The notes under the pieces: model-generated | Told to the model about the DNA's origin: nothing | Seen by the model: only the letters and a program-made list of their open reading frames with translations | Database searches by the model: none | Translations under genes and position numbers: made by a program | NCBI GenBank assembly: GCA_015489315.1 | Contig: WFZZ01000138.1 | Location: 1-63,558, forward strand | DNA: 63,558 nt | Direction: 5' to 3' | From: Deltaproteobacteria bacterium | Lineage (GTDB): Bacteria; Desulfobacterota; Dissulfuribacteria; Dissulfuribacterales; QOAL01 | Shown: in pieces, positions 1,865 through 20,237 of the stretch | Numbering within the stretch: position 1 is the stretch's first letter | Layout of the letters: the number at the start of each line of letters is the position of its first letter

Positions 1865-1923
1865 TCTTCTTTTCCTATAGCCAATTTCAAAATCCTCTGC
1901 TATAAAAAAATCAAAAATTGTGA

Positions 1924-1945
1924 GCCCTTCTAAAGGGCCTTTTTT
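1924..1945 (+). terminator. small intrinsic-terminator-like hairpin plus U-tract, directly abutting the cytochrome start codon
   Basis: GCCCTT-CTA-AAGGGC gives a 6-bp stem (1924-1938), followed by C and T6 (1940-1945). ATG is at 1946. The only SD-like AAGGG (1933-1937) lies in the 3' arm. Confidence 0.45.
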
Positions 1946-4139: not shown

Positions 4140-4203
4140 GATCCGCCTCCTTGATAAAAAGGTTGTGGCAAATCCAAATGCCTGATTAGACCAAAATAAA
4201 TTT

Positions 4204-4836
4204 TCAGGCGCTTTTATACCTTCTATGAATAAGGGCCTGGCCATTGCCCTTTTCCATACCTCTTTTTTTACTAATGTCATTGATTGTATTTAAATCCTCT
4301 TGAGAATCTACTTCGTCGAGAACTGCACTCCAGCCATCTGAAACTCCGCAAAGGATATAAGGGTCATAGCCATTTTCTTTTGAAGACTCTTTTTCTACCG
4401 TGCTTTCAATCTCTTCCTTAACACTATCAAGTGACATGGGCACAGGGTCAAACATGGCAACTATATCTTGGGTCTCTAACCCAGGGCCTTGCTTATAAAA
4501 AAGGCCAATACTTATAAGACAAACAAGAGAAAAGACCACAGACGCACTGGCAAATGCCCACTTCCAGGTGAAAAATCCCTTTAAAAAACTCAACCTTTGC
4601 TTGAGAGGTTTCAAATTTGCCCTCACATTATTTTTCATCTCTATCCAGAAAAGCTCTGGCTCTTCTTCATGGGCATCTGTCCTCAAGCCTTCCATGCCAT
4701 ATCTAAAAAGCTCCCATTCCTGTTGACACTCTTCGCACTCTTTTAGATGCCCTTTAAGATCTGACGAAAGGTCGGCCTCAAGGGCTTCTTCTGCCAGATG
4801 AACCGTTGCCTTTTCCCAAAATTCTTCACACTTCAT
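4204..4836 (-). CDS. zinc-binding (ZAS-type, zf-HC2) anti-sigma factor, single-pass membrane protein
   Basis: C3...H30-x3-C34-x2-C37 (GHLKECEECQ). One TM (FASASVVFSLVCLISIGLF). ATGA overlap with the sigma gene stop. Confidence 0.8.
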   Translation of the reverse strand: MKCEEFWEKATVHLAEEALEADLSSDLKGHLKECEECQQEWELFRYGMEGLRTDAHEEEPELFWIEMKNNVRANLKPLKQRLSFLKGFFTWKWAFASASVVFSLVCLISIGLFYKQGPGLETQDIVAMFDPVPMSLDSVKEEIESTVEKESSKENGYDPYILCGVSDGWSAVLDEVDSQEDLNTINDISKKRGMEKGNGQALIHRRYKSA

Positions 4837-5375
4837 AGACCTAATCCTTGTTGCTGTAAAAAAGTTCTAACTCCCTTAATTCCAAAGAAAAAATTTGTTC
4901 TCGCAGTCTCTTCCTTGATATTAAGATGTCTTGATATTTCTTTAAAACTCATCCCCTTAATAAGCCTTAAACTTACAACCAGGTGTTGTTTGGGAGGAAG
5001 ATTCATAATTGCCTTTTTTACGCTGTCCTTAATTTCTCTTTTAATAAGACTTTTTTCTGGCGCGTTCTCCATATCAACCTTCATCCAGGGCTCAAGTTCG
5101 AGATGTTCCTTTTTGGTTCTTAAATGATCCCTTGATAGATTAATAGCTATCTTAAAAAGCCATGATCTGAAACTATCTCTTTTTCTCAATTTTTTTAGAT
5201 TATTAAACGCCTTAATAAAGGCCTTTTGCGTGATATCCTTTGCATCTTCCAAATCAAAGACAACAGAGCGAACCAAACGAAATACATCTTCCTGATATCT
5301 TGTCATCAGGACATCAAAGGCTGTTTCATCACCATTCAGGTAGTCTTTGATGAGCTCCGCGTCTTTTTTCTCCAT
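4833..5375 (-). CDS. ECF (sigma-70 family group 4) RNA polymerase sigma factor
   Basis: Region 2 (FDVLMTRYQEDVFRLVRSVV...DITQKAFIKAF) and region 4 HTH (MSFKEISRHLNIKEETARTNFF). 180 aa. Confidence 0.9.
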   Translation of the reverse strand: MEKKDAELIKDYLNGDETAFDVLMTRYQEDVFRLVRSVVFDLEDAKDITQKAFIKAFNNLKKLRKRDSFRSWLFKIAINLSRDHLRTKKEHLELEPWMKVDMENAPEKSLIKREIKDSVKKAIMNLPPKQHLVVSLRLIKGMSFKEISRHLNIKEETARTNFFFGIKGVRTFLQQQGLGL

Positions 5376-5385
5376 TTTCTAATAA

Positions 5386-5414
5386 GACGATTTAGGGGGA
5401 CAAATGTTTAAAAA
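5386..5414 (-). promoter_or_regulatory. ECF-type promoter of the sigma operon (TTTTTAAAC-N16-CGTC)
   Basis: Minus strand reads TTTTTAAAC ATTTGTCCCCCTAAAT CGTC TTATTAGAAA ATG. The same motif occurs at 10604-10631 and 18575-18603. Only 10 nt separate CGTC from the ATG, and there is no SD. Confidence 0.6.
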
Positions 5415-5444
5415 TTTCTTTAAATTAAAAGGAACTCAGTGGCA

Positions 5445-6305
5445 TCATTGCCACCTTTTTTCTTCCTGACTTTTTATGGCAATAAGGGCCTGATGAAAAA
5501 AACAAGGGGGCTTCTTTCCCTTTTTATAAAAGGTTTCATAGATTTCGTAGAGGCTGTCTCTAGCCTCACTTGGCCTTTTGGCATCTAAAAGCAGCTCTAT
5601 TTCTTCCATTCTTAAAGAGATATTATCAGGCTCTTTTTTAAGCTCCTTTTTGATGGCCAAAAGGGCATCATCCATCTGTCCTTTAAGGGCCAGGATTTTT
5701 CTTTGAAAATGGCGGCATAAAGAAACCGGGCTATTTGAATTGGTTATTTGGATGTGCCCGTTTTTTGAAATAACCCTGAATCCATCTACTTCAATGGCCT
5801 TTTCAATATCCTCAAAAAAAACATGGTAATCGCCAGGCAGAAGGGGCGATGAAAGAAGCCAGGAAAGGATAATGGAATTGCTAGGAGATATCTTTTTCAA
5901 ATCTTGACTTAATCGCATTGGCTCCAACTTTTCATCTATTCTTTTTCCTTTTGAATCTTCAATAATAGGGACAAAAAGGACAGGGTTTTTGATTTCCAAA
6001 GTCTTTTCTGGACTAAGATTCGAAATTTCCACATTTATGTAGAGTGGACAGTTCATTCCGATTTTAAGCCATTTTGTTCCATTGGGCCTTATTGATACAA
6101 TTATGAGATTTTCACCGCTTTTATTGAAAGAACTCTCTCTAGTCCCATTTCCCGATTTGCTTGTCACATTGTTTTCAACAGAAGTGGCCGAGTCAGAATA
6201 TCTTTTGGTAAGTCCCCCAAAAATTATCGACGTCATGACGGCTATAACAAGTAAATGAAAACGAAAACCCGTTATCCATGATTTATAAATATCTTTTCTT
6301 GCCAT
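5445..6305 (-). CDS. hypothetical N-terminally anchored envelope protein with a helical C-terminal part
   Basis: One TM (FHLLVIAVMTSIIFGGL). No recognisable catalytic motif. Lies 10 nt downstream of the metzincin-like gene. Confidence 0.6.
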   Translation of the reverse strand: MARKDIYKSWITGFRFHLLVIAVMTSIIFGGLTKRYSDSATSVENNVTSKSGNGTRESSFNKSGENLIIVSIRPNGTKWLKIGMNCPLYINVEISNLSPEKTLEIKNPVLFVPIIEDSKGKRIDEKLEPMRLSQDLKKISPSNSIILSWLLSSPLLPGDYHVFFEDIEKAIEVDGFRVISKNGHIQITNSNSPVSLCRHFQRKILALKGQMDDALLAIKKELKKEPDNISLRMEEIELLLDAKRPSEARDSLYEIYETFYKKGKKPPCFFHQALIAIKSQEEKRWQ

Positions 6306-6315
6306 AATAACATTC

Positions 6316-8814
6316 CTAATAGCTTTTTATATTCAACTGCTCCAAGTCAGAAGGCTGGCTTGCCTTTCCTGCATAGTTTCCATTTACATTAAATCCTGAT
6401 TCGGTAAGTGCGGTAAATGCCCGTCTATTGATAAGATGAGTGGGAAAGTCCTTGAGTTCACCGTAGTCACAGTTCATGGTTCGGGACTCACATAGCTTGT
6501 CTGCTATCTTATACATCATGAAACTGAAGATATCTCCGCTGTGCTGGCCACCCTTTAAGGCAACCCACAATTTTCCATGGTTTTTGAAGTTTACGAAATA
6601 TTCTGTATCACCGTGATGGTGTATGTTCATTTTGTGTCCAAGTTCATGGGCAATCAAACCGACAAGTTCATCTGACGGAACCTTTTGCCACCAGATTACA
6701 ACGGTATTATTTTTTATCCCAGGCGGTGATACGTCTGATGCAAGCCCTGCAAAATCCCACCGTCCGTTCTTATTAAAAAACCTGTAGGCCCATATCTGAT
6801 CATCATAGTCCATTACCACTATGGCATACTGTTTTGACTTGGAGCCTCTATTTTTGAACTCCTCGTCAAACCCCATACTTCCCTGGAAATTGACTATATC
6901 GTCTTTCATTTCGTCTTCATCCAGAATGACAAGTTCAAGATGCGCCTTGTTTGAGGCGAAAACCCTCTTCAATAACTGTAGCTCCGGAATAAACCTACCA
7001 GAATAGGGATGAACGAATATTGTTTTTCGCGTGGGATTCGTCCTTAAAAGATGTCCCAATGAATAAACACCTCGATACTCCTCAAAATACGAAAGCCCAT
7101 CCCCTCGATGTTTGTCCTTTATGTGCGTATCCCTGTCTTCCCTAAGAGAGCTGAATTTATAGACATCTTCCCAGTCATCATGAATGCCATCTTTATCGAG
7201 GTCATAGGGGAAAGTGAGACAGGAGTGGTCGCTTGTGGCAGTAAGCCCTGTAGCATTTGCGCCATACCAAATGCCGTTTATTAGGACATCTGCAGCAATC
7301 TGTCCCTTGGCAGCGCTATCCATCACCCTCATTGTCACTGTAATTTCATCTTTTTGAGGGTTTTCGAGGATCAACTGGTTAGCAGCCTTGTATTTAAGGC
7401 CCTCGGTATAGACCGTGCCATTAACTTCGAAATCAGGATTGTCGATATCTGTAAAATAAAGATCAGGGAGTTTATCCACTGGGCATTCTGAATAAAAATT
7501 GTAATGCCTGGTTATGGTCATATTGTTCCAATAGGTTTCAAGATTGTATTGTTTTACCTTTTTCCCTGCTATACAGTCAGGGCACACACTATGAAGTTTG
7601 TGGTTTCCGGCATTGGTGGCAATGCCTGGATAGGAACTTACATTAATAAGCCTGAAGCGTACTGCCTGAACACCTTCATGATTGGGGTTTTTAAGGATGA
7701 GCTTGTATTTCCTTTTATCTCCTGGTTTTGGCAAAACAGCCGACTCTCCCTTTTGAGCAGGCATAAGCTTTGCGTCAATGGTCATGGTTGCACCTATCCA
7801 GAAATCAAGATTTGCTTTTATGATCCTATCCCAGTCAAGATAACTGCACCCAGGGATTGAGCCCCTCGCCTCTGCGGAAAAATGACCGGATATATCCATG
7901 TCATTTATGGAAAAGTCATCGGGCAGGAGAAAGCGCTTGTTATGGGTAAATTCCAAATCGTTATTTGCCGTTTTGTTTTTTGTTCCGGTGATATTGTGAT
8001 ATCTAAAGCAGTCCACTTCGCAAAACCGGCTTTTGAGTCCGTCCGTTAGATAAAATGCCCAGCTAAGGGTTGCAGGTTTCTCTTTATAGGCATAAAGTTT
8101 TCCAGGCCCTAAAAAATATCTGTAAGTTCCAACGCCATAGGTGTCATACTGGGGACGGCTTTCTCCTATGTGAGTTGCCAACTCAGAACACTGGGCCGTA
8201 AGATATATTTGTCCTCCTATCGCCCTTGAGTCATGGATGACCATGGAACAAAGATATGATGAGGGAGCAAGCTTCCTAAACAGAATATCAAGCCCTTCCC
8301 GCTTGAGGGAATGCCCCTTAAGCATTTCTTTCAGCTCTTTTTCAGATGGGGCTTCAAAATTTTTATATATTCTCGCCTTGATATGCTGTTCAGTGCATGT
8401 CTCATTTGGTGGAGTAGTAGAAAAACCTGTTACAAAGTTGACGATACCGCTAATGGTGGCCTTTTGAGGTATGATATAATATCTATCTTCAAATTTTAAT
8501 CTCTTTAGCATTGACGGCTGCACTCCACTATCAAGCATCATCCTCAGAGCAGGGACTGCTACTATGTAAAAACCCTTCATCTTGTAGGTGATGTTGAAGT
8601 GTGTAGTTCTATCTCCAAAGCCTGTAAGCCTTATTTCGCCTTGCTTGTCATTTATGACAAAAAGGCTTGAAGTATTTAGAGTTCTATTCAATAAATCTTT
8701 GGCGAGGGCGTCCGCCCCACTGGATAAAACCATGGAAAGTGATGAAAAAAGCAAGAGCAGACACTGCAAAATGGGGCGGACATCTCTAATGACCCAACCT
8801 TTAAAATAGTTCAT
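6316..8814 (-). CDS. large secreted metzincin-like zinc metalloprotease with a Ca-binding DxDxDG-type motif
   Basis: HELGHKMNIHH (HExxHxxNxxH, encoded at 6613-6648) followed by a SFMMY Met-turn-like motif. DKDGIHDDWE acidic loop. Signal-like N-terminus. ATG 8814 is preferred over the ORF-track TTG at 8841. Confidence 0.65.
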   Translation of the reverse strand: MNYFKGWVIRDVRPILQCLLLLFSSLSMVLSSGADALAKDLLNRTLNTSSLFVINDKQGEIRLTGFGDRTTHFNITYKMKGFYIVAVPALRMMLDSGVQPSMLKRLKFEDRYYIIPQKATISGIVNFVTGFSTTPPNETCTEQHIKARIYKNFEAPSEKELKEMLKGHSLKREGLDILFRKLAPSSYLCSMVIHDSRAIGGQIYLTAQCSELATHIGESRPQYDTYGVGTYRYFLGPGKLYAYKEKPATLSWAFYLTDGLKSRFCEVDCFRYHNITGTKNKTANNDLEFTHNKRFLLPDDFSINDMDISGHFSAEARGSIPGCSYLDWDRIIKANLDFWIGATMTIDAKLMPAQKGESAVLPKPGDKRKYKLILKNPNHEGVQAVRFRLINVSSYPGIATNAGNHKLHSVCPDCIAGKKVKQYNLETYWNNMTITRHYNFYSECPVDKLPDLYFTDIDNPDFEVNGTVYTEGLKYKAANQLILENPQKDEITVTMRVMDSAAKGQIAADVLINGIWYGANATGLTATSDHSCLTFPYDLDKDGIHDDWEDVYKFSSLREDRDTHIKDKHRGDGLSYFEEYRGVYSLGHLLRTNPTRKTIFVHPYSGRFIPELQLLKRVFASNKAHLELVILDEDEMKDDIVNFQGSMGFDEEFKNRGSKSKQYAIVVMDYDDQIWAYRFFNKNGRWDFAGLASDVSPPGIKNNTVVIWWQKVPSDELVGLIAHELGHKMNIHHHGDTEYFVNFKNHGKLWVALKGGQHSGDIFSFMMYKIADKLCESRTMNCDYGELKDFPTHLINRRAFTALTESGFNVNGNYAGKASQPSDLEQLNIKSY

Positions 8815-8824
8815 AAAGGCCTGC

Positions 8825-10276
8825 TTATATAGTTGCGTCAAATTCCAAGACCTCTCCCTTTTTTATCTCAAGTCCTGTGGCAGCTGGAAGCGGATCTTGG
8901 ACGCCTTCAACAAAGAGATAGAGGTCGTAGGTCCCTGGTTTTACAATGTACTTTCCTTCAAATTGAATGTTCCTGAAGTGGTCCTTGTAGGCCTCGATTG
9001 CAGGCTTTTTTTCACCTGCCTTTACAAGTTTATAGCCAAATACATTGTTTGAGGATTTCTTGATTCTAAATCCTGTATCAATGTCTATAGCGACGACCTT
9101 ACCTTCGGTTACCTTGATTGCCTTTGCAACAGTTATGGAAGTTCTATCCTGAGTAACTGTGACGTTATAGACCCCTGGCATTATGGCCTTTGGCGCCTGG
9201 ACACAATAGGGATATCCTCCTGTAAGCTTCTGGGTCATGGTTGTTTTGGGTTCATCTGTCTTTTCATAGGTGACGGCCGTTATCAATGGATATTTCATCT
9301 CCTTTGAAAAATTGAGCAAAATGACACCGGGCTTGTAAACCGTGGTCTTTCCCTTATCTATGTGGACATTTCCAACTATAAACTCTCCCACGCCTTCTCT
9401 ATATATACCGCAGCAGAAAGACCGAATTTCGTAATCCCCGCTTAGGAGTGGAAATTTGATGCTTGGTACATAACTATTATGAAACTCCTTACTAGCCGTA
9501 AGCTTTCCTGTCTTTTTGTTGATTACCTTAAGCATAAAGATGCTTCCGCCAACGTTTTTGTCAAATTCAATATCTAGCTTTCCAAGGCCAATGGATATGG
9601 TCTTCTTGGTGCTTTGGGCAGGCTTTATCTTTTGTTCCACCTCTTTTTTCACACTGTTAAGGGCAGAAAGAAGAGAATCTGCATCGGAGGCCGAATAATA
9701 CTTTCCTCCCCCTGCCTTTGCTATGCACATAAGCTGTTTTTTCTCTTCTGGTGAGACATCAAAGCCAATTACATCAAGAACAAACTTAACCCCACTATTT
9801 TTAAGAGATTTTACAGTTCCGCATGGATCTGGCACACAAGTCTCTTTGCCGTCACTTACAAGGATGATGGTGGTTTCCGCCTCGTTTTCCTTGATTACGT
9901 CGGTAACCTTTTTTATTGACTGGGCAATGGGTGTCATGCCCTTGGGAGTGATGTTATCCATTCTTGAAAGAAGCTCATCCCTGCTTGAAGCGCCGGGCTT
10001 TATCAGAATCTCAATATCTGAACAGTCTCCCTTTCTATGATGCCCGTAGGCACTGAGTCCTACCTTTACCTCTTTAGAGATGGCAGGTACTATTTTATGG
10101 ATTACCTCCTTGGCAATATCAATCTTTGCCTTGCCATTAATCTGCCCGTACATAGAGCCTGAGGCATCGAGGATTATCATGATCTGGGGACTATCTGCCA
10201 AGGCCCTGCCCAAAAAAGAAACCATGAAAAAAGACACAAAGAAAAGCCATATTAACTTCCTGCTAATCCTTTCCAT
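8825..10276 (-). CDS. secreted von Willebrand factor A (VWA) domain protein with a beta-rich C-terminal half
   Basis: Signal peptide, then MIDAS DASGSM (DxSxS) in MIILDASGSMYG. Also TPIAQSI and ILVSDGKETC. Confidence 0.8.
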   Translation of the reverse strand: MERISRKLIWLFFVSFFMVSFLGRALADSPQIMIILDASGSMYGQINGKAKIDIAKEVIHKIVPAISKEVKVGLSAYGHHRKGDCSDIEILIKPGASSRDELLSRMDNITPKGMTPIAQSIKKVTDVIKENEAETTIILVSDGKETCVPDPCGTVKSLKNSGVKFVLDVIGFDVSPEEKKQLMCIAKAGGGKYYSASDADSLLSALNSVKKEVEQKIKPAQSTKKTISIGLGKLDIEFDKNVGGSIFMLKVINKKTGKLTASKEFHNSYVPSIKFPLLSGDYEIRSFCCGIYREGVGEFIVGNVHIDKGKTTVYKPGVILLNFSKEMKYPLITAVTYEKTDEPKTTMTQKLTGGYPYCVQAPKAIMPGVYNVTVTQDRTSITVAKAIKVTEGKVVAIDIDTGFRIKKSSNNVFGYKLVKAGEKKPAIEAYKDHFRNIQFEGKYIVKPGTYDLYLFVEGVQDPLPAATGLEIKKGEVLEFDATI

Positions 10277-10300
10277 TTCATTCTCCTTTTTAAAGCAAAA

Positions 10301-10549
10301 TTATTTTGACCAGTGCCCTGGGACCCAGATTCCCATTCTATTAAAATGGCCTGGAACCCAGTGTTTTCCTGTAACTGGAGGGCCAACGTATTTCCAGTGG
10401 CCTGGTATTATCCTTCCATCAACAGTCCTATGTTTTGGAACCCACACAAAATTGGGCCCTGGCTTTGGCGGTCTTGCACTAGCACATCCAACAAATACAA
10501 ATGAAAAAGCCAAAAGTAGGGCTAAAAAGAAGCCTTTTGCTTTATTCAT
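10301..10549 (-). CDS. small lipoprotein with W-[VI]-P-G-H-W repeats (YXWGXW/WXXGXW-repeat type)
   Basis: Lipobox FVGC. Repeats: FVWVPKH..IIPGHW..KHWVPGHF..IWVPGHW. ATG 10549 is preceded by AAGGAGG. The ORF-track start at 10582 is TTG. Confidence 0.7.
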   Translation of the reverse strand: MNKAKGFFLALLLAFSFVFVGCASARPPKPGPNFVWVPKHRTVDGRIIPGHWKYVGPPVTGKHWVPGHFNRMGIWVPGHWSK

Positions 10550-10603
10550 TGTTGCTACCTCCTTGAAGATATTTAAAGCCAAAGGGAATTTTCTAATATC
10601 TTT

Positions 10604-10631
10604 GACGGAAACTTTTGAGAATTTGTTTAAT
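10604..10631 (-). promoter_or_regulatory. ECF-type promoter of the lipoprotein-VWA-metzincin operon (TTAAAC-N17-CGTC)
   Basis: Minus strand reads TAATTAAAC AAATTCTCAAAAGTTTC CGTCAAAG. It lies 55 nt upstream of ATG 10549 and immediately after hairpin 10634-10670. Confidence 0.55.
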
Positions 10632-10633
10632 TA

Positions 10634-10670
10634 CCCGACTCTTTAAATATGAAAGTCTAAAAGAGTCGGG
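10634..10670 (-). terminator. hairpin downstream of the hydrolase gene (likely terminator/insulator)
   Basis: CCCGACTCTTT...AAAGAGTCGGG forms an 11-bp stem with a 15-nt loop. The U-tract is poor. Confidence 0.45.
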
Positions 10671-10680
10671 CGAAAAAGAC

Positions 10681-12303
10681 TTAAGGAATCAGCAAACTAA
10701 TCTTAGGACGAATAATTAGAAGTTGAACACTATATCCAGGTATTAAAAAGGAACTTCCTGACCATGAAGAAGGCGTTTCGCCATTATTTTCTTCATCAAT
10801 TTGATAAATTGTAACAAAATAATCCTTTGAATTTACGCTATTACCATCAATACTGATCTTGTAACTATTGTCACTGGATTCAGGATTTGAAACCAGAACC
10901 GCATATCCTTTTTCCCCCTTTGCCCCTAGGATCCACAATCTTGACCCATCTTCAGCAATGGACGGAAGTGGTGCATTCATGAGTGTAGGGAAATCATTAT
11001 AAATTTTTGACCAAAGCTTGAAGGCATAGGCCGTTGGCTTATAAGTAGCATCTTCATCACCATAAAAAAGCCCTGACCAGCCATGATCTTTATCTCCTGG
11101 AGAGGCATCCGGATTTGATTTCGGATCACTCGCCCTGTAATAAAAGGCCCTTTTAACCCCAGAATATTGAAGGGCAATCCAGGTACCTGTCATCACGGCA
11201 GCACCCTCTGGCCCGTTTTTTAAAGCCAACTGCTCAATCCACGGAAGCTTTTCGAGCTCTCCTGTGAGGACTCCAGTTTGTGTAGCAGTTCCCCATGCAT
11301 CACAAATAATCTCCACATCATCAAAAAAACCTGTTCCTGCCCACGGAACCGAACTAAAATCTCCCTTCCCATTCAAGAGATTTCGATATTGTCTGGCTGC
11401 CATTATGTAATGTTCGGGGTTGTTGCTCCAAAGATGCCATCCTATCCAATCGGGTTTTAGGCCCTGTTCATATAAGTAACTTAAAAATTCAATTGCTGGA
11501 TTATCCTTTATTTGACCATTAATCACTTTAATTGTAGGCACTAAAAAACCTGGACCTCCCACCTTCAAGTGGGGAAAGGTGTCTTTTATTTCTCTAAATG
11601 CCCTTGCCCAAAATTTAATAAATTCTCGATTGCTTCTGTCCCAAAAGTTTTTATTGGGCCATTCAGTATAAATGTCTACATAATTGAGGACATGGCTTTC
11701 TCCATTCCAGTTGTCATATCGCTCTATTATCTTTTTTGCCACAATAATCCAATTGTTTTCCTGAAGTTCGTTTTGGGGTCCGTGAAAATCATGAAGTCTC
11801 AAAGCACATTGATAAGAGCCCCCAATCCTTAAAAAGGGTTCAAAACCGCCATCAATTATTTCCTGAAAAAGCTCGTCACTATCCGTCCAGTAATAATTGG
11901 CTGGATCATTGGCATCACACTCCCAAGACGGATAAACTGATGTATCCGGGCATCTGAAAATACCCTCAATGTCAAGACGATCATCGTAATAATCATTATT
12001 TCTTATTCCTGTTACCCCAATATCTTGAAGCCTTGTTGTAAGATCAGGAGAAGGAGAGTCGGGTGGGACAATGGGACCAGAAATTACGCCTTGAAGAGGC
12101 TTTATTTTTTTACTGATAATAAATTCATTGATTTTAATATCATGGATTACTTTAGAGCCTATCGAGACTTCAACGTCTAAAGTGTCATGTTCTGAGACAT
12201 CTGCATTAAAACTTGGCTGGGCACAATTTCCATTTTTGAAAATGGGAAAATAAAAGAGCAAAAAGGCCAACAGACAGAAAAAAGTAACACGAACGGATTT
12301 CAT
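10681..12303 (-). CDS. secreted TIM-barrel glycoside hydrolase-like protein (clan GH-A-like)
   Basis: Signal peptide after ATG 12303 (RBS AAGGAGG). IYTEWPNKNFW resembles the NEP acid/base strand. The ORF-track start at 12387 is GTG, upstream of the RBS. Confidence 0.55.
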   Translation of the reverse strand: MKSVRVTFFCLLAFLLFYFPIFKNGNCAQPSFNADVSEHDTLDVEVSIGSKVIHDIKINEFIISKKIKPLQGVISGPIVPPDSPSPDLTTRLQDIGVTGIRNNDYYDDRLDIEGIFRCPDTSVYPSWECDANDPANYYWTDSDELFQEIIDGGFEPFLRIGGSYQCALRLHDFHGPQNELQENNWIIVAKKIIERYDNWNGESHVLNYVDIYTEWPNKNFWDRSNREFIKFWARAFREIKDTFPHLKVGGPGFLVPTIKVINGQIKDNPAIEFLSYLYEQGLKPDWIGWHLWSNNPEHYIMAARQYRNLLNGKGDFSSVPWAGTGFFDDVEIICDAWGTATQTGVLTGELEKLPWIEQLALKNGPEGAAVMTGTWIALQYSGVKRAFYYRASDPKSNPDASPGDKDHGWSGLFYGDEDATYKPTAYAFKLWSKIYNDFPTLMNAPLPSIAEDGSRLWILGAKGEKGYAVLVSNPESSDNSYKISIDGNSVNSKDYFVTIYQIDEENNGETPSSWSGSSFLIPGYSVQLLIIRPKISLLIP

Positions 12304-12338
12304 TTTTTCCTCCTTTAACAATTGGGATTTAATTAGAA

Positions 12339-12368
12339 GACCAATCGATAGGAGAAAAAGTTTAAAAA
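12339..12368 (-). promoter_or_regulatory. weaker ECF-like promoter candidate for the hydrolase gene (TTTTTAAAC-N17-GGTC)
   Basis: Minus strand reads TTTTTAAAC TTTTTCTCCTATCGATT GGTCTTC, 36 nt upstream of ATG 12303. The -10 differs from CGTC at one position. Confidence 0.35.
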
Positions 12369-12454
12369 GTTTCTTTAAAATTTGCACATTACTTTCTTTT
12401 TAAAATCCGTCTTAAAATTTCTGCCATTTCAGGATGTTATAAGTTAACAAAAAA

Positions 12455-12484
12455 TTTTTAAACTTTTTTTATAAAAAAACAGTC
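12455..12484 (+). promoter_or_regulatory. weaker ECF-like promoter candidate for the C39-like peptidase gene (TTTTTAAAC-N17-AGTC)
   Basis: Reads TTTTTAAAC TTTTTTTATAAAAAAAC AGTCCTAG, 76 nt upstream of ATG 12560. The spacer is AT-rich, so a chance match is possible. Confidence 0.3.
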
Positions 12485-12559
12485 CTAGAATTTAAAGCTA
12501 AGTGGTTCCATTTACCCTGTCTTTTTTAAGGGAACAAAAATCAAACACAGGAGGAAGAA

Positions 12560-14494
12560 ATGAAAAATTTAATTATCCTAGCAGTTGGTTTTAGTATGTT
12601 TTTTGCCATTCAGGTCTATGCCATGGAGGGGAACAATGAATTTCAGCGTGGATCATCAATGTCCTATAATTACCCTGGGACCAAAAGTGACGTAATTATC
12701 GGGCAAGATTCCAACCGGAACAGCAAAAATAACAATGAAATTGCCATAATTTCAGGTGTACCAAGATACTATCAAAAATATATTACATGTGACGATGCTG
12801 ACGAATTTAAAACCTTTTTCGGAGAGATATTTAATAGGGTCTGCGAGTGTCCGAATGGATTTCCTACTGGTTGCGGTCCTGTTGCCGGTGCTACTATTCT
12901 AGGTTGGTATGACCGAAGGGGTTATGAGTTGATTGACGACGACGAAGTTGACGCAAATGGCCTTCCAATGGATACAATCATTCTCCTTGGTGAGCAAAGA
13001 TACATGGATTTGGATCCAAATAATGGTTGCAATGCCTCTGGCGTATCTCCGGATGACTTGATAGATGCACTTGAAAAATACTTCGATAAAAAGGGTTATG
13101 ATTTTGACATCCAAGCCTATACACTGATGGGTAACAAATATTATAAAGGCATAGCACATTCAGAAAGGCAGTTGAACCATCTATCTAGTGGAACTATTGA
13201 AGATCTTTTTAATAATGTAGTTAAACCAGAAATAGACTCTGGCCATCCACTTATAATGGGCTTAAATGCATTTGGGGAACAAGGAAATTATGGCGATTTT
13301 AAACCAGCTGATCACGCAGTCACAGTAGTTGGATATGATAATAGCCAAGGTGATTATCGTTTAATAATCCAATATAATTGGGAAGATAATAATGAGCTTA
13401 CTCCATATAGGGAAATATATTGGAATAAATCAACACCAATTCGCCTGACAGACTATTCTACCTTTAACTATGATGAAAAAAATAATCCATATTTATTAAT
13501 ATCAATTACACCAAAAACAGAAGTCGATTATGAAGGAAACTGTGACCATCTAAATGTAGAAGGTGTCGATAATTCCGATTTTCAGGCCAAAGATGGACTT
13601 TATGACCAATGTCACCTTCTAAATGGTGTGTATTACCCCTATTTCAGGCCAGATGGAAATTTGACAGTGCCACTTGGACCTACAGACTTCATCACACTAC
13701 AGGACAATGAATGTTTTGTGGCTTCATGGCCTTCTGATTCTTACAAAGTCTCTCAGTCCCTTTATGATCGGGATTTAGATAGGTACTCTGATTTATGTGA
13801 TTTAGCTGAATTGAGTGTTGAAATTACAAGTGTTTCTTATGAATGGACAGAGGACAATTATGTGAAAATGGATATTGAAGCAACTGTTGAAAATATTTCT
13901 CCCAGAGAAGATGCATCAAATGTTTTGGTTCAATTCCTTTTAACTGGAGCCTATAGCAGCGCAGAGCACTACCTGGTAGATCAAGGCACAACTTCTTTGG
14001 CATCTGGTTTCTCCATAGATTTGAATTCGTCAACTTATGGAACACACGTAGATCTGTCCAAAAGTTCCGATAGTTCCCATAAGGCGACGATCTCCCGCAG
14101 TTGGTATCTTGATTTGAATAAACATTTTTACGGTGGACTTGGCCAAGATGAATGCGTAGCATTTTCTGTAGATGTGGTTGCTGATCCCAAAGACGAAGTA
14201 GAAGAGGAAAATGAAAATGGATGTCTTGGTGGCTGTGACGGAAGCTCCAGCGAAGGCAATAATATGGCAAAGTATTTTGTATCCTTTACGGATGATGATG
14301 CTGATTGTAGTTCCAGCGCCCTTTTTAATGAAGAATTTGATTCTTCCTGGGTCGAAATTATAAACAATTCCATATTATTTGAATCCATGAAAAATCAGAC
14401 CATAGAAAGTGGTTTGATTGAAATAATAGGCAAATCGCAAAAATATCTCAATAATGCCTATAATAACTCAGTAGTTAGGAACCCTGCCCACTAA
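12560..14494 (+). CDS. secreted papain-fold (peptidase C39-like) cysteine peptidase with a CARDB-like domain and an acidic Cys-containing tail
   Basis: Signal peptide. Candidate catalytic Cys105 in PTGCGPVAGATILGWYD and His252 in ADHAVTVVGYD. Later LSVEITSVSYEW...IEATVENIS is a beta-sandwich-like segment. Confidence 0.55.
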   Translation: MKNLIILAVGFSMFFAIQVYAMEGNNEFQRGSSMSYNYPGTKSDVIIGQDSNRNSKNNNEIAIISGVPRYYQKYITCDDADEFKTFFGEIFNRVCECPNGFPTGCGPVAGATILGWYDRRGYELIDDDEVDANGLPMDTIILLGEQRYMDLDPNNGCNASGVSPDDLIDALEKYFDKKGYDFDIQAYTLMGNKYYKGIAHSERQLNHLSSGTIEDLFNNVVKPEIDSGHPLIMGLNAFGEQGNYGDFKPADHAVTVVGYDNSQGDYRLIIQYNWEDNNELTPYREIYWNKSTPIRLTDYSTFNYDEKNNPYLLISITPKTEVDYEGNCDHLNVEGVDNSDFQAKDGLYDQCHLLNGVYYPYFRPDGNLTVPLGPTDFITLQDNECFVASWPSDSYKVSQSLYDRDLDRYSDLCDLAELSVEITSVSYEWTEDNYVKMDIEATVENISPREDASNVLVQFLLTGAYSSAEHYLVDQGTTSLASGFSIDLNSSTYGTHVDLSKSSDSSHKATISRSWYLDLNKHFYGGLGQDECVAFSVDVVADPKDEVEEENENGCLGGCDGSSSEGNNMAKYFVSFTDDDADCSSSALFNEEFDSSWVEIINNSILFESMKNQTIESGLIEIIGKSQKYLNNAYNNSVVRNPAH

Positions 14495-14503
14495 AAAAAT
14501 TAT

Positions 14504-14526
14504 GCTCTGCCCGCCCCGGGCAGAGC
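14504..14526 (-). terminator. intrinsic terminator between convergent genes
   Basis: GCTCTGCCC-GCCCC-GGGCAGAGC gives a 9-bp stem. On the minus strand it is followed by TAATTTTTT. It also sits 10 nt after the + strand stop. Confidence 0.65.
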
Positions 14527-14637
14527 AATAAAAACTATTTCAAATAAGATAACGGCTGGCACCTGATACAAGCATAAAAAAATAAATAAACTTTGTAGTA
14601 TTGACTGAGCCATGGAATAGGAGCCCCACCGAGGCCC

Positions 14638-17600
14638 CTATTCAACCTTCATAATACATGCATCTATGACAGGTGCTGCTATATCAAAGAGAAGCCTTAT
14701 CACAGGCTTGTAACATTTCATAGCCTTTTCGGAAGCCAAGTATTTAATATCATTATGATAGCTTTTATAGTTCTCTGGAAGACATGGAGGCCATGAATTG
14801 CCACTTTCCCATTCAATTATATTGGTAAACTCCAATGCAAAAATATCACTCAGAGAGGGTTCTCCTGTTCCACAACTTTCAACTGCACATGGACATAGAT
14901 TCTTCATAGTCTCCTTTATACTTTGAGGGTTATTTTCCTCTACTGCAACAATTATATTATTTACTGGCTCTAAAAAACTCTTTAAGGTATTTTTGATAAT
15001 GTTGAAGTTTTTTGTCCCAGTTAGTGCTTCAAGAATAGCTCCTGCCACCGTCTTTGCAACTGCATCTTTTACCACGTAGGATAGCCCCTTTGCCCACTCA
15101 CCAGCACTTACTATTGTACTAAGTGCACTAAATACCTCACCTGACACCCCTGTAAGGAGGCTATCTGTCAAAAGATTATCTAATTTGTCCAGGTCTTTTT
15201 CTTCAATCTTAATTCTTACAATCTCTTTATTTATAGTGTAATCAACATGATATTGGATGGCTGTATTGCCTATATCTGTAAGGCCAAAATCAGGAATACC
15301 CATAGCACCCTTTAGAAAATCAAGGGAACTTATTCCATACCATAGGATGCCATCAAAAGCAGATGTGCTAAACTGACTACCTTTACTTTTTAAATATTTT
15401 TCTGCTTCATCTCCGAAGGAAAAGAATCTATTAAGGTCGACTCCTCTTAAGCTATATAATAAAACCCCCTGTAAGGCCTCGGTTTTATAACTGTTCCATG
15501 AAGAAGGGAAAAACCAAATACCAAATCTCTCTTCTTTTGTATGTTTGGCATTAGCCTCAAGTTCCACCAAAATCAGAGTCGGTTTTTCTATCTTTACTGA
15601 CTTAATACTATCCGGAGATCTAAATAGCTCATCCTCTTTAAGTGTTTTTATTGGTTTCCCTTGGTATACCCTGTCCAAATATATGTAGTTTTCCTCTTTG
15701 GCCTTTCTTATACCGCAGTACACTGAATATTCATCCTCGGCAAACACCTTTGCTACCTTTATATCAGGATAGCCAATTTTATAGGTGACTCCAAAGTACA
15801 ATATGTCATGCCCTTCAGGCATTATATAGATATGATCTGTGATCCTTATAAGATTCAAAACGTCTTTGATCTCACATCTTTTAACATCCTTGAGTGGACC
15901 CTTATAATAAGATTCCAGGTTAAATACCATGCCTACAAACTTTTTAAGGGTCACTTCAAGAGTCTTTTTTTTTCGTCTCTCAAGTGCAATCTCCCCATGA
16001 TAAGGCATGTAACCCACTTTCCAAATAAAAATATCGTACTTTCCAGGAGACAAGGTGGAATAATCAAGATATGAAAAATCAGATCCTACCTTTTTTACTA
16101 TGATATTAGCATTATTTATCTGGTTCCCATCATCATCTTTTATTACAAATTTAAGGCCTGCCTCCTCATCCACCCCCATTACAAATGTGGGGGGACTGTA
16201 TCTATAACCATATCGTGCATCAAAAAAGAGGGAGACCTTTTTAGTAAATGGTCCGTATCTAAGGATAAGATTCAGAGGTTTTTCGGAAAGACCTGGGGAG
16301 ATACCACTTACAATAATTCCATTTCCGACCCTTTGGTCTTTTTTTGAGGGCTTATCTGTCCTCCAGTGGGGGCCTTTAAAAGATATTTGAAGCTTATCTG
16401 TAATATTTTCTCCATTTTCTGTAAAAATCTTTAGCCTGTTCAGGTCATATTTATCTATCTCAAGAGGAATCTTGCCAGTATCCCGGTCCTTAAATTCAAT
16501 GGAAAAGTAATACTTAGATTCTATTGTAAGATTGTCACTTATACTACTTTCTGCATGTCCCCATTTAGAATCAAGACTAACTGTAAAAGAACGGACAATC
16601 TTATATCCATCCCATTTTACCTCTACATCCCTGGCCAATATGTTTCCATATATGGAAAACGAACTGCCATTTCTGCTAATTATTTTTGGCAAGATATCTG
16701 TCCATGTCCGACCTTTTATTGAAGGTCTTATTCCTTTTGTTTTTACTGTCCATTTTAGCCCATCAATATCTTTATCCAGTTTGTTGTCTATAATGCCATC
16801 TATGTTAAATACCCACGGGTCACGGTTTCTTTTATCATTTTCCAAATGGATGCTCAAAACATTTTGAGACTTTTTTATAGTCACAGGATATCTTGAAATA
16901 ATAGGACCCAATTTGAAGATAAGATGGGCCGTCTCCTCAGAGGCTTTGGTATTCGGTGTATGCCATATATAGGCCTGATTACTGTGGAAGATGCTACCCT
17001 TATCCACATCTATCGTAAGCTCATCCAGCCCATACTTACAATTTCCTCTAATATCCACCCTGGTATCGGTATCTTCATAAAGAACGTCAGGTTCATTAAA
17101 GGTGGGTGAAAAGCTTATATCTACCGGAATCCAGCCAGGAGTTGATGCCAAAAAGGAGTAAATCCCAAGGCTGGCTTTTTTATCATCTGCCGGTTCGCCT
17201 CTATTAAAAGAAAGTATGTAAACCCTATTGTTATGAATTTTAACAAACTTCGTAATATATTTTTCTGGGAAAAGATAAAGGCCCTTGATCTTTCCATCTG
17301 AAAGGGAATATTTTAATCCATTAGAGCCATCAAAATCTATTAACAGCCGCTCTCCAGTCCCGAAATTTATATAGTGCCCATTATATGGAGACAGATTGGC
17401 AATAGATGGAAGGACAAACGATGTATCGTCATATTCGACTGTCCAGTAAGGATTATTATCAGTAACTATGTGTCTAAATACTATAAGGTGCTCTTCATCT
17501 ACTATCTTTACATTTTCAATATCCTGACCAGATATCTTTTTTATAATATTTCCACTGGTATCTATAAGCAGATAATGGGTCTTTGAAGGATTTATCCCTG

Positions 17601-18450
17601 CCTGTATCATAAAAAGAGAGGCTTTTGAGGATGTACCAACTTCTTTAAACCTTATAAATCTATCATTATTAAGGAGTTCCAAAAGGGAAATATCTTTTAT
17701 ATGGGTACCATCTCTCTTATAAAGTTTAAGTATCCAATTACCTGTTTGGGCCTGGGTCAAAAGACCAAAAATTGGAGCTCCAGGCAAAAATGATATATTA
17801 CCTGTCCCAAGCGTAATAGTTTCTCCTGTTACTACATCCTTTAATAAATAGCTTCCTCCATCATAGACTAAACATTTTGTCTCTGTGACAAAACGATGAG
17901 ATGGAAGCTTTTTATCCAGAAGATCGTATGTTTCAACATCCCCATTTTGGGTCCTATACACAAAGAGTTTTTTTGAAGAACTGTTAAATATCATAATTTT
18001 ACTATCATCTGATTTTAGTATAACTGTGCATGGAAGGGGCCTGGTGGTTTCAGCACCTGTGGCAAGTTCAACCCTGTGGATGGTTATAGAATGTTCATCA
18101 CCTTTTTTAGAGATATAGCTTAAATATCCATCTTTAATACTTAAATGTCCTGCCCAGGGAAGATATTTTGTATCTTTTCCTTTAGAGAAGGAGACCTCAT
18201 AGGTCTTCTTTCCATTATCTAAATTCACAATACATACCACTATCTTGTAAAAATCTGGATCGTCCTTGGTCAATTTATATAGCACAGCCATATAGCTGCC
18301 CTTTGTGAGAAGGGTAGCTACGTTTATATGAATGTCTCTTTCTCCTGTATAAAGTGTGGCGACTTTATCTATAGGTGGTGAAAAACCCCAGGATATGCTG
18401 CCAATAAATAAAAGGAGTGATACCAAAGAAGAAAAGGAATATTTTTTCAT
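14638..18450 (-). CDS. 1270-aa secreted hypothetical protein, no recognisable domain
   Basis: Uninterrupted ORF with a signal peptide (MKKYSFSSLVSLLLFIGSISWG). Beta-rich N-terminal two thirds and a Cys-containing C-terminal region. Confidence 0.7.
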   Translation of the reverse strand: MKKYSFSSLVSLLLFIGSISWGFSPPIDKVATLYTGERDIHINVATLLTKGSYMAVLYKLTKDDPDFYKIVVCIVNLDNGKKTYEVSFSKGKDTKYLPWAGHLSIKDGYLSYISKKGDEHSITIHRVELATGAETTRPLPCTVILKSDDSKIMIFNSSSKKLFVYRTQNGDVETYDLLDKKLPSHRFVTETKCLVYDGGSYLLKDVVTGETITLGTGNISFLPGAPIFGLLTQAQTGNWILKLYKRDGTHIKDISLLELLNNDRFIRFKEVGTSSKASLFMIQAGINPSKTHYLLIDTSGNIIKKISGQDIENVKIVDEEHLIVFRHIVTDNNPYWTVEYDDTSFVLPSIANLSPYNGHYINFGTGERLLIDFDGSNGLKYSLSDGKIKGLYLFPEKYITKFVKIHNNRVYILSFNRGEPADDKKASLGIYSFLASTPGWIPVDISFSPTFNEPDVLYEDTDTRVDIRGNCKYGLDELTIDVDKGSIFHSNQAYIWHTPNTKASEETAHLIFKLGPIISRYPVTIKKSQNVLSIHLENDKRNRDPWVFNIDGIIDNKLDKDIDGLKWTVKTKGIRPSIKGRTWTDILPKIISRNGSSFSIYGNILARDVEVKWDGYKIVRSFTVSLDSKWGHAESSISDNLTIESKYYFSIEFKDRDTGKIPLEIDKYDLNRLKIFTENGENITDKLQISFKGPHWRTDKPSKKDQRVGNGIIVSGISPGLSEKPLNLILRYGPFTKKVSLFFDARYGYRYSPPTFVMGVDEEAGLKFVIKDDDGNQINNANIIVKKVGSDFSYLDYSTLSPGKYDIFIWKVGYMPYHGEIALERRKKKTLEVTLKKFVGMVFNLESYYKGPLKDVKRCEIKDVLNLIRITDHIYIMPEGHDILYFGVTYKIGYPDIKVAKVFAEDEYSVYCGIRKAKEENYIYLDRVYQGKPIKTLKEDELFRSPDSIKSVKIEKPTLILVELEANAKHTKEERFGIWFFPSSWNSYKTEALQGVLLYSLRGVDLNRFFSFGDEAEKYLKSKGSQFSTSAFDGILWYGISSLDFLKGAMGIPDFGLTDIGNTAIQYHVDYTINKEIVRIKIEEKDLDKLDNLLTDSLLTGVSGEVFSALSTIVSAGEWAKGLSYVVKDAVAKTVAGAILEALTGTKNFNIIKNTLKSFLEPVNNIIVAVEENNPQSIKETMKNLCPCAVESCGTGEPSLSDIFALEFTNIIEWESGNSWPPCLPENYKSYHNDIKYLASEKAMKCYKPVIRLLFDIAAPVIDACIMKVE

Positions 18451-18574
18451 TTTTCGCCTTACCTAATTATATGATTTTAAAAATATTAGCACAGATTTTA
18501 TTATTTAAAAAAATAAATGTGTCACACTCCTTATATGATCAGGATTTAGCCAAATATTTTCGCTTTTTTAATTT

Positions 18575-18603
18575 TTTTTAAACATTCTCTAAGGCCCATC
18601 GTC
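18575..18603 (+). promoter_or_regulatory. ECF-type promoter of the lipoprotein-DUF1800-DUF1501 operon (TTTTTAAAC-N16-CGTC)
   Basis: Reads TTTTTAAAC ATTCTCTAAGGCCCAT CGTCTTTT, 33 nt upstream of ATG 18637 (RBS AGGAGG). Confidence 0.55.
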
Positions 18604-18636
18604 TTTTAAATAAAGACAAAAATAACAGGAGGAAAC

Positions 18637-18822
18637 ATGAGGATATTTTTTCTTTTGTTATTAATGGCTATAACCCTGTTTTCCATGACTTCCTGCACCA
18701 CAAAAATAGTTGCCCGACCTTCTACACCTAAACTCACTTATAGGTACAGGGCTGTTTGGATTCCTGGACATTATACAATTACAGGCAGATGGGTAGCCGG
18801 ACATTGGAGAGTTATGCCATGA
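18637..18822 (+). CDS. small lipoprotein with PGH[WY] repeats, paralogue of 10301-10549
   Basis: Lipobox MTSC, then AVWIPGHYTITGRWVAGHW. Its stop overlaps the next start (ATGA at 18819-18822). Confidence 0.65.
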   Translation: MRIFFLLLLMAITLFSMTSCTTKIVARPSTPKLTYRYRAVWIPGHYTITGRWVAGHWRVMP

Positions 18823-20210
18823 AATCACAATTTAGAGATCTTACGCCTTACAAACCATCCCATGAATTTCCGTGGGACAGAAATAGGGTCGGTCATCTCT
18901 TAAGGCGGACTCGAATAGGAGATCCTTCACCCCAAGAAATTGACAGATTTTTAAACCTTGGGCCAGATAGGGCCGTGGATGTCCTTTTTGAGTTTCCACA
19001 GCTTCCGGAACCATTTGAGTGGGTAAATGATCCCCCGGGTGCACCCGAAAACCCAGAAATAGACCAGGAGCGCCGGGAAGAACTGATTGATTTCATGATT
19101 GATTTAGCGCTTAAGGACATATCTATCCGGGAAAGGCTGGTCTATTTCTGGTCTAATCATTTTGTAGTTCAAGTTAGCAAGGTCAAGGACCCAAGGTGGA
19201 TGTTTAGAATAAATAATCTTTTTAGAAAAAATGCAGCAGGTAATATTCGGGAGCTTACAAAGGCAGTGGGCAAGGAACCTGCCATGCTTATATATCTGGA
19301 CGGAGTAAAAAATACCAAAAGGCAGATCAATGAAAACTACGCCAGGGAATTACAGGAACTTTTTACCATAGGAAGAGGTAATTATACGCAAAACGATGTT
19401 GTCGAGGCTGCAAGGGCCTTTACGGGATGGAAGATAAATAAAACAACTGGAAAGTCATATTTTGTTCCTTGGCTTTTTGACGCCGGAGAAAAGACCTTTT
19501 ATGGCTATACTGGAAATTTTAATGGAGACGACATCGTTGATATAATATTTAAAAGGCCTGAGACAGCTACCTTTTTAGCTAAAAAGATATATCGTCACTT
19601 TGTCTCTTATAAAGAGGATGAGGAAGTAATCTCACAGCTCGCCACACTCCTTGTTGATAATGATTTTGAGTTGGCCCCAGTCTTAAAGACCCTTTTTAAA
19701 AGTGCTCATTTCATGGACGACATATTTATAGGTGCAGACATTAAAAGCCCACAGCAACTTTTAATCGGACTTTTACGACAGTTTAGTGGAAAACCTCCTA
19801 ATTCAAAACTTACTAGAAGACTTCTTTCTATAACAGGACAACCAATTTTAGAGCCTCCCAATGTATCGGGATGGAAAGAACACGAGGCCTGGCTTGATAC
19901 TTCAACACTTATTTACAGAAAGGCCCTTTCTATCAATTTTATCGAAAGGCACAAAAAATTTGGCCTTGATATCAATGAATTTACCTACTATTACGCAAAA
20001 AGATCATCCACCACCAAAGAGCTATTTAAAAACATCATCACCGACCTCCTGCCAACAAGACTAAGTAATGAAGATTTAGAAAATATCCTTAATTTTTTTG
20101 ATATTGACCAAGATTCCTATATCAATAATCCGACTTCTACTAAAATTCAGGGAAAGGTACTAGGACTTCTAGAAACCCTAGTCCAGATGGAGGCCTTTCA
20201 ACTCACATAA
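18819..20210 (+). CDS. DUF1800 family protein
   Basis: N-terminal VGHLLRRTRIGDPSPQEI and NHF, ENYARELQELFTIG segments typical of DUF1800. ATG 18819 is coupled to the lipoprotein stop. The ORF-track start at 18756 overlaps the lipoprotein gene. Confidence 0.7.
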   Translation: MKSQFRDLTPYKPSHEFPWDRNRVGHLLRRTRIGDPSPQEIDRFLNLGPDRAVDVLFEFPQLPEPFEWVNDPPGAPENPEIDQERREELIDFMIDLALKDISIRERLVYFWSNHFVVQVSKVKDPRWMFRINNLFRKNAAGNIRELTKAVGKEPAMLIYLDGVKNTKRQINENYARELQELFTIGRGNYTQNDVVEAARAFTGWKINKTTGKSYFVPWLFDAGEKTFYGYTGNFNGDDIVDIIFKRPETATFLAKKIYRHFVSYKEDEEVISQLATLLVDNDFELAPVLKTLFKSAHFMDDIFIGADIKSPQQLLIGLLRQFSGKPPNSKLTRRLLSITGQPILEPPNVSGWKEHEAWLDTSTLIYRKALSINFIERHKKFGLDINEFTYYYAKRSSTTKELFKNIITDLLPTRLSNEDLENILNFFDIDQDSYINNPTSTKIQGKVLGLLETLVQMEAFQLT

Positions 20211-20237
20211 TCAGCTTATATAATATGGAGAGATAAA

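Follow-up and report, generated by a model that had tools for sequence, protein, structure and literature searches.

A predicted autoregulated ECF sigma circuit and its local regulon in an uncultured Desulfobacterota-type genome

Contig WFZZ01000138.1 of the deltaproteobacterial assembly GCA_015489315.1 was analysed over 63,558 nucleotides (nt), a stretch referred to below as the window (63.5 kb). It contains a gene for an extracytoplasmic function (ECF) sigma factor, accompanied by genes for an anti-sigma factor and for a secreted protein that we call X, and a bipartite motif, TTAAAC-N16/17-CGTC, stands before the sigma gene and before two operons that each begin with a gene for a small lipoprotein with PGHW repeats. 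Judged from the sequence, the region 3585-21440 very probably represents an autoregulated ECF sigma circuit together with much of its local regulon (Table 1).

The sigma module and its predicted target operons

The sigma protein matches the Pfam families Sigma70_r2, Sigma70_r4_2 and Sigma70_ECF and reaches 94 bits against the NCBIfam model TIGR02937 (cut-off 42.9). As is usual for ECF (group IV) factors, it consists of the sigma2 and sigma4 domains alone and falls within about 170-200 amino acids (aa), and its nearest solved relatives are AlgU, SigW and RpoE. No NCBIfam equivalog model came near its cut-off (best score 117.6 bits, cut-off 204), and by this measure the protein is no orthologue of any named system. 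No second sigma gene was found in the window.

The ATG of the anti-sigma gene overlaps the stop codon of the sigma gene by 4 nt (ATGA). Its product is, from its sequence features, an anti-sigma factor of the zinc-binding (ZAS) type for which zinc binding is predicted: the ligands C3, H30, C34 and C37 do not vary among five orthologues (alignment A3), and NCBIfam returned weak anti-sigma matches. Gene X lies 3' of the anti-sigma gene in eight related loci (L005, L008, L011, L014, L019, L023, L100 and L179; loci are cited by number throughout) and follows it in every orthologous locus that reaches far enough, with products of about 165-185 aa. The X family gave no match in Pfam, in NCBIfam or, by profile search, in PDB; the protein may be a periplasmic partner of the anti-sigma factor.

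Downstream of sites 2 and 3 lie two predicted target operons. The first was delineated from Pfam matches, signal peptides or lipoboxes, and Shine-Dalgarno (SD) sequences, and in the second Pfam recognizes DUF1800 (1e-99) and DUF1501 (3e-22). The small lipoproteins consist of (V/I)W(V/I)PGH(W/Y)...GRW(I/V)PGHW repeats, akin to the WxxGxW/YXWGXW repeat (Pfam PF12779, weak), and in addition to the two in the window such proteins are encoded in L014 (4759-4944) and L179 (543-716). An export signal, be it a signal peptide, a lipobox or a twin-arginine translocation (TAT) signal, is present on every predicted target product, and the output of the circuit would therefore be a remodelling of the cell envelope.

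Table 1. Genes, predicted promoter sites and hairpins in the 63.5-kb window
Feature	Position	Strand	Description
ECF sigma gene	4833-5375	minus	180 aa; sigma2 and sigma4 only
Anti-sigma gene	4204-4836	minus	210 aa; ZAS motif C3, H30-x3-C34-x2-C37; one transmembrane helix
Gene X	3585-4139	minus	184 aa, secreted coiled-coil protein; third gene of the module; alignment A2
Site 1	5386-5414	minus	Predicted autoregulatory ECF promoter; TTTTTAAAC-ATTTGTCCCCCTAAAT-CGTC-TTATTAGAAA-ATG; spacer N16; TTAAAC 5411-5406, CGTC 5389-5386; 10 nt to sigma ATG at 5375
Site 2	10604-10631	minus	Predicted ECF-type promoter; TAATTAAAC-N17-CGTC, also given as AATTAAAC-N17-CGTC; TTAAAC 10630-10625, 17-nt spacer, CGTC 10607-10604; lipoprotein ATG at 10549
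Site 3	18575-18603	plus	Predicted ECF-type promoter; TTTTTAAAC-N16-CGTC; TTAAAC 18578-18583, CGTC 18600-18603; 33 nt to lipoprotein ATG at 18637
Site 4	12339-12368	minus	Candidate site; TTTTTAAAC-N17-GGTC; 35 nt before ATG 12303 of GH39-like gene
Site 5	12455-12484	plus	Candidate site, the weakest; TTTTTAAAC-N17-AGTC; 75 nt before ATG 12560
Target operon 1 (predicted)	5445-10549	minus	Four genes, listed in the next four rows
PGHW lipoprotein gene	10301-10549	minus	
VWA protein gene	8825-10276	minus	
HExxH metalloprotease gene	6316-8841	minus	Weak M6 similarity
TPR-like membrane protein gene	5445-6305	minus	
Target operon 2 (predicted)	18637-21440	plus	Three genes, listed in the next three rows
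PGHW lipoprotein gene	18637-18822	plus	
DUF1800 gene	18819-20210	plus	ATGA overlap
DUF1501 gene	20238-21440	plus	TAT-type signal
GH39-like gene	10681-12303	minus	ATG 12303 is the start in other assemblies too
Peptidase_C39-like gene	12560-14494	plus	Downstream of site 5
Hairpin	10634-10672	minus	Between GH39-like gene and site 2; 12-bp stem, 15-nt loop (minimum-energy fold), no U-tract
Weak hairpin	5438-5455	minus	7 bp; between TPR gene and site 1

A shared promoter motif and its conservation

According to the initial annotation, three intergenic sites carry the same bipartite motif, each oriented toward the gene downstream, and all three read as claimed; for site 2 the location and the motif hold, whereas the distance to the lipoprotein ATG, given as 55 nt, measures 54 nt. 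The exact pattern TTAAAC-N16/17-CGTC has three matches on both strands of the window, all of them intergenic and each pointing at a gene, where 0.06 are expected, and none of 100 dinucleotide shuffles reached three. DNA from other organisms contained four exact matches in 1.18 Mb and none in 324 kb. Because the pattern had been picked after looking at the window sequence, a weight matrix was trained solely on the upstream regions of six orthologous sigma genes from other genomes. Among 254,072 placements scored in the window, site 1 ranked first (25.6 bits) and site 3 second (24.2 bits), and the next distinct site reached 11.1 bits. Site 2 is a weaker variant with a 17-nt spacer. ECF promoters are known to carry AAC at -35 and CGTA or CGTC at -10, often with a T-tract beside the -35 element (PMC5758882), and the assignment of the three sites to this class agrees with the published pattern; upstream of the sigma gene itself, an AAC -35 and a CGT/GTC -10 are separated by a 16-17 nt spacer.

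No sigma-70-like promoter was predicted on the correct strand in the intergenic regions of sites 1 and 2, and one AT-rich sigma-70-like match lies upstream of site 3 (18476-18504). An RNA element in the intergenic regions was rejected as an explanation, as neither an Rfam family nor a tRNA was found in the window. The hairpin preceding site 2 had been annotated as a terminator. A stable hairpin is indeed present (-18.8 kcal/mol, z = -4.8; tail UAAUUAAAC) and is kept in L181, where an A-to-G change preserves the pairing as G-U; its identity as a terminator is insecure, because with a 15-nt loop and no U-tract it is not a canonical intrinsic terminator, and the terminator scan did not call it.

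Searching for autoregulatory motifs upstream of sigma genes is an accepted way to ECF regulons (PMC7776599). TTAAAC-N16/17-CGTC stands directly 5' of the orthologous sigma genes in L017 (97% identity), L008 (65%), L019 (61%), L100 (53%), L011/L022 (50%), L014 (49%), L023 (49%) and L021 (48%), and the upstream neighbours of these genes are unrelated (an ABC transporter, a glycosyltransferase, a divergent NrdD and a divergent MgtC). Recurrence of the motif before orthologues of 48-97% identity in unrelated contexts supports the proposed autoregulation of the sigma gene. Across ten sources, the window plus nine related loci (with L012 in place of the overlapping L011), TAAAC-N16/17-CGTC is restricted to the fronts of sigma genes and lipoprotein operons, save for one extra site in L008. 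This TCTTTAAAC-N17-CGTC (3853-3878, minus strand) is directed antisense into gene X from the 3' end of an MFS transporter gene and might represent a chance match or an antisense promoter. More distant sigma relatives (29-38% identity) have TAAACC, a T-tract and GTGTCTAA.

The target sites are conserved as well. In L005, whose lipoprotein is 70% identical, site 2 reads AATTAAAC-N17-CCGTC, with another spacer sequence and a distance of 49 nt to the ATG, and in L181 it shows two substitutions, both within the spacer. Site 3 is present as TTTAAAC-N16-CGTC before the lipoprotein gene of L098/L101 (DUF1800 63% identical), where the remaining DNA is unalignable, and is also kept in L097; the comparison with L098 was read directly from the sequences, as the MAFFT alignment mis-registers the motif. 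Gene order points in the same direction. The L014 operon runs sigma, anti-sigma, a 61-aa PGHW lipoprotein and X; in L099/L100 sigma, anti-sigma and X are followed directly by DUF1800 and DUF1501; and L179 strings together anti-sigma, PGHW lipoprotein, X, DUF1800 and DUF1501. Upstream of a Nitrospirae DUF1800 gene (L180) lies TTTTTAAACC-N15-TGTC, and the TGTC variant of the -10 element is also found 5' of most of the more distant sigma relatives, many of which come from Nitrospirae metagenome-assembled genomes (MAGs). Promoter conservation and operon fusion thus agree in identifying the PGHW lipoprotein and DUF1800/DUF1501 as conserved partners of the sigma module, and the proposal that the sigma factor drives all three units gains support from this comparison of target sites and gene adjacency in other genomes. 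In the L005/L018 lineage (9914-10001) the sigma gene lies directly behind the VWA gene, and the locus has neither the protease nor the TPR gene.

The motif is not a general trait of WxxGxW/PGHW lipoprotein genes. This possibility was rejected by a scan of 78 Joint Genome Institute (JGI) metagenome loci encoding such lipoproteins, of which only two, both orthologous, have the ECF motif; one further distant match, 355 nt upstream of the lipoprotein gene in L112, was judged uninformative.

Two further candidate sites had been overlooked earlier. The relaxed pattern TTAAAC-N17/18-GTC has five matches in the window against 0.92 expected, all intergenic and all facing a gene, and TTTTTAAAC-N17/18-GTC has four against 0.06. 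Sites 4 and 5 lie back to back in a single divergent intergenic region (12304-12559). L181 retains site 4 as ATTTTAAAC-N17-GGTC, with a protein that is 79% identical and otherwise unrelated intergenic DNA, and L017 retains the site too; the GH39-like orthologue of L183 (59% identity) has no motif, in a genomic context that is different and hence uninformative. A repeat finder paired sites 1 and 4 (D6), 4 and 5 (I1, inverted) and 1 and 5 (I11, inverted) through a shared AAAGAAAnTTTTTAAAC segment, which may be an UP-like extension of the -35 element. The regulon is thus probably larger than the three sites noted first, and the sequence evidence supports at least four sites, possibly five, in the local regulon.

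Geometry of the sigma gene start

The sigma gene has no SD sequence; every neighbouring gene that is not translationally coupled has a GGAGG-like one. Its start is unambiguous, as TTATTAGAAA directly precedes the ATG, an in-frame TAG lies two codons upstream and the N-terminus is conserved (alignment A1). Both the 10 nt from CGTC to the ATG and the missing SD, as pointed out in the initial annotation, were confirmed on the sequence, the C of the site 1 CGTC standing 11 nt before the A of the ATG. In the sigmaE -10 structure of Campagne et al. from 2014, to whose work the entries 2mao and 4lup among the structure matches of our sigma factor presumably belong, the flipped base is reportedly the C of GTC at about -10. 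Likely start sites can be counted from this base (PMC7776599): as it lies about 9-10 nt before +1, transcription would start at 5376-5378, leaving a predicted sigma leader of 0-3 nt.

A GTC-to-ATG distance of 10-13 nt without an SD recurs in about nine lineages (window/L017, L018, L008/L019, L100, L024, L035, L027, L057 and L043), down to about 32-38% identity and with the pattern GTC-TAAATAAnTAA-ATG, and in four of the nine a stop codon abuts the sigma ATG. Among leadered relatives the distance ranges from 17 to 70 nt. A constant distance from -10 element to start codon across distant lineages is what selection for a 5'-terminal AUG would give, and on this geometry the sigma mRNA is probably leaderless or near-leaderless.

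An unlikely but conceivable role for the fixed 10-11 nt between -10 element and AUG, combined with the missing SD, is that of an insulation device. A 5'-terminal AUG, and with it translation, would then be reserved for transcripts that the sigma factor itself initiates at site 1, RNA reading through from upstream genes in the same orientation (here a target operon of the same sigma factor) would leave the sigma cistron untranslated, and positive feedback would be gated at translation initiation. The one direct hint is a trend of the leaderless geometry to go with a co-directional upstream gene, which is found in eight of nine leaderless-geometry lineages versus five of 11 leadered ones (Fisher p = 0.06, non-significant; sigma loci L008-L068, based on crude open reading frame calling and on statistics that ignore phylogeny). 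It is more probable that this sigma clade is a conserved regulator of DUF1800/DUF1501 and PGHW lipoproteins in Desulfobacterota-type and Nitrospirae genomes than that the geometry serves insulation.

Proposed circuit, rival readings and known systems

In the circuit that we propose, the sigma factor would be produced together with its single-pass, zinc-binding anti-sigma factor by translational coupling, and together with the secreted partner X. As in SigW-RsiW, RpoE-RseA and further ZAS pairs, to which this step is drawn by analogy, the anti-sigma factor would hold the sigma factor in the resting state, until a presumed envelope signal inactivates it. The freed sigma factor would then guide RNA polymerase to promoters composed of (T)TTAAAC, a 16-17 nt spacer and (C/G)GTC. 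Its predicted targets are its own gene (site 1), resulting in positive feedback, the operon for PGHW lipoprotein, VWA protein, HExxH protease and TPR protein (site 2) and the operon for PGHW lipoprotein, DUF1800 and DUF1501 (site 3), to which the GH39-like gene (site 4) would probably and the C39-like peptidase gene (site 5) possibly be added.

Several observations weigh against parts of this proposal. Site 2 scores 9.6 bits with the matrix, at about the 11th rank and within the matrix noise, and it departs from the sigma-gene promoters in its 17-nt spacer and in having CGTCAAAG instead of CGTCTTA. Sites 4 and 5 are without the C of CGTC, and site 5 lies in very AT-rich DNA and is read from the window sequence alone. 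The wider WxxGxW/PGHW lipoprotein family in other organisms lacks the motif, and the AAC/CGTC promoter class is common to many ECF sigma factors while the window covers 63.5 kb of the genome. In the L005/L018 lineage (73% sigma identity), CGTC, the following 10 nt and the ATG are kept and the -35 position reads GACGTCC, not TTAAAC, which may be the scar of a deletion that took the -35 element. Finally, four lineages of close orthologues (L023, L014, L021 and L011) have a sigma leader of 17-37 nt, and leaderlessness is therefore not universal.

That the three matches arose by chance or belong to a repeated mobile or repetitive extragenic palindromic (REP)-like element has practically no probability left: although the pattern was defined after viewing the sequence, shuffles, background DNA, the independently trained matrix and the conservation across genomes all oppose this idea, and a repeated element is excluded by the repeat analysis, as the sites resemble one another only in the -35/UP and -10 blocks and have unrelated spacers, and Rfam contains no matching family. 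It is also improbable that sites 1 and 3 alone work, and that sites 2, 4 and 5 are fortuitous in front of genes driven by the housekeeping sigma factor. AT-rich intergenic DNA does favour TTAAAC-like words, and the low matrix rank of site 2 and the non-canonical -10 elements of sites 4 and 5 would fit; yet site 2 and its spacer length persist in L005 despite the diverged spacer sequence, site 4 persists in L181 amid unrelated intergenic DNA, promoter prediction gave nothing sigma-70-like ahead of the site 2 gene, and from base composition a chance TTAAAC-N16/17-CGTC is expected in about 1e-3 of 170-nt upstream regions. A low probability likewise attaches to the reading that the promoters are genuine but that some or all of those outside the sigma gene are served by a different ECF sigma factor. 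As the class is shared by many ECF groups, some of the sites could be read by a sigma factor whose gene lies outside the window, with overlapping recognition as among SigM, SigW, SigX and SigV of Bacillus subtilis, for which regulon overlap is documented (PMC5758882); the departures of sites 2, 4 and 5 from the sigma-gene consensus would suit such a case, and the two sigma/anti-sigma/X modules with the same motif in L015 and L100, both from a single metagenome, might be paralogues within one genome. Against a different sigma factor, motif and sigma lineage occur together in several genomes, L014, L100 and L179 carry target genes fused into the operon of this very sigma, the -10 element of the Nitrospirae DUF1800 gene in L180 matches the TGTC variant of the distant sigma relatives, and the window holds no other sigma gene. 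Binding of these sites by the sigma factor encoded at 4833-5375 is the reading that we predict.

The leader of the sigma mRNA is a separate matter. There is some chance, though we doubt it, that the gene is expressed from a longer transcript, produced by read-through from the upstream operon or by an unrecognised promoter, and is translated from an A-rich leader by SD-independent initiation. The TPR gene upstream runs in the same direction and only the weak 7-bp hairpin lies between it and site 1, the -35 element is not conserved in L005, and the sigma genes of L011 and L014, with A/T-rich leaders of 26-37 nt and no SD, make SD-independent translation seem possible in this group. Such a transcript is opposed by the fixed GTC-to-ATG distance in about nine lineages, which the leadered relatives do not share, by the stop codons abutting the ATG in several of these lineages, and by the A-rich predicted +1, which fits adenine-initiated leaderless ECF transcripts (PMC7776599). 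Leaderless or near-leaderless translation of the sigma mRNA remains our predicted reading.

As a mechanism, an autoregulated ECF sigma factor with a ZAS anti-sigma factor and an AAC/CGTC promoter is standard, and little is new in it. The circuit resembles SigW-RsiW of Bacillus subtilis (ECF01), with a small sigma2-sigma4 protein (SigW is among the best solved-structure matches), a co-transcribed single-pass anti-sigma factor with H-x3-C-x2-C and a regulon of envelope proteins. The promoters, too, are alike, as those of SigW-RsiW and of SigV and SigM combine an autoregulatory xxAAAC -35, a 16-17 nt spacer, a CGTC or CGTA -10 and a frequent T-tract after the -35 (PMC5758882). Unlike SigW/SigV/SigM promoters, which have TGAAAC at -35, the sites described here have TTAAAC. 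In contrast to SigW itself, our sigma factor stays below every NCBIfam equivalog cut-off and is no orthologue, its module contains the extra secreted partner X, its gene has neither a leader (as predicted) nor an SD, and its regulon comprises PGHW lipoproteins, DUF1800/DUF1501, the VWA protein and the HExxH protease.

The top solved-structure relatives (6in7 and 1or7) belong to the RpoE-RseA-RseB system of Escherichia coli and the AlgU-MucA-MucB system of Pseudomonas aeruginosa, which share with our locus the operon layout of sigma, anti-sigma and periplasmic partner, autoregulation, an envelope-stress regulon and a GTC core at -10. RseA and MucA differ in lacking the ZAS motif, and X is not similar to RseB or MucB. 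The rpoE promoter is GGAACTT-N16-TCAAA, and the rpoE mRNA, unlike the sigma mRNA predicted here, has a leader.

Leaderless ECF-dependent transcripts have been predicted in Actinobacteria, not in Firmicutes (Todor et al, 2020; PMC7776599). As in those cases, the ECF -10 element is placed here so that +1 would fall on the A of the start codon, in an adenine-rich initiation region. The differences are that our examples come from uncultured Desulfobacterota-type and Nitrospirae MAGs and concern specifically the gene of the sigma factor itself, that they are known by their geometry, and that the host genome otherwise uses strong SDs.

Departures from known systems are thus the secreted partner X, the content of the regulon and the predicted leaderless sigma gene, and we see a modest novelty in the link to DUF1800/DUF1501 and in the recurrent leaderless geometry. 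Our literature search found no paper linking DUF1800 or DUF1501 to an ECF sigma factor. The analysis offers TTAAAC-N16/17-(C/G)GTC as a specific model of the promoter and, for an uncultured lineage, a defined predicted regulon. It also connects DUF1800 and DUF1501, which are widespread and of unknown function, as well as the tiny PGHW-repeat lipoproteins, with a candidate envelope-stress regulator; both the conserved promoters and the operon fusions seen in other genomes support this connection. Leaderless and leadered sigma genes within one clade would moreover offer natural variants for studying leaderless translation in positive feedback outside Actinobacteria.

Other genes flank these units. 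The gene table of contig L001, which is identical to this one, lists at 180-3579 (plus strand), adjoining the sigma module, genes for an NrfD-like membrane protein, a MerR regulator, a multihaem cytochrome and a small haem-binding protein. A secreted protein of 1270 aa without a Pfam match is encoded at 14638-18450 (minus strand), in the stretch that separates the C39-like gene from site 3. Its gene apparently has a TATAAT-type promoter of its own and lacks an ECF motif, and it is set off from the convergent C39-like gene by a strong bidirectional terminator (14503-14527).

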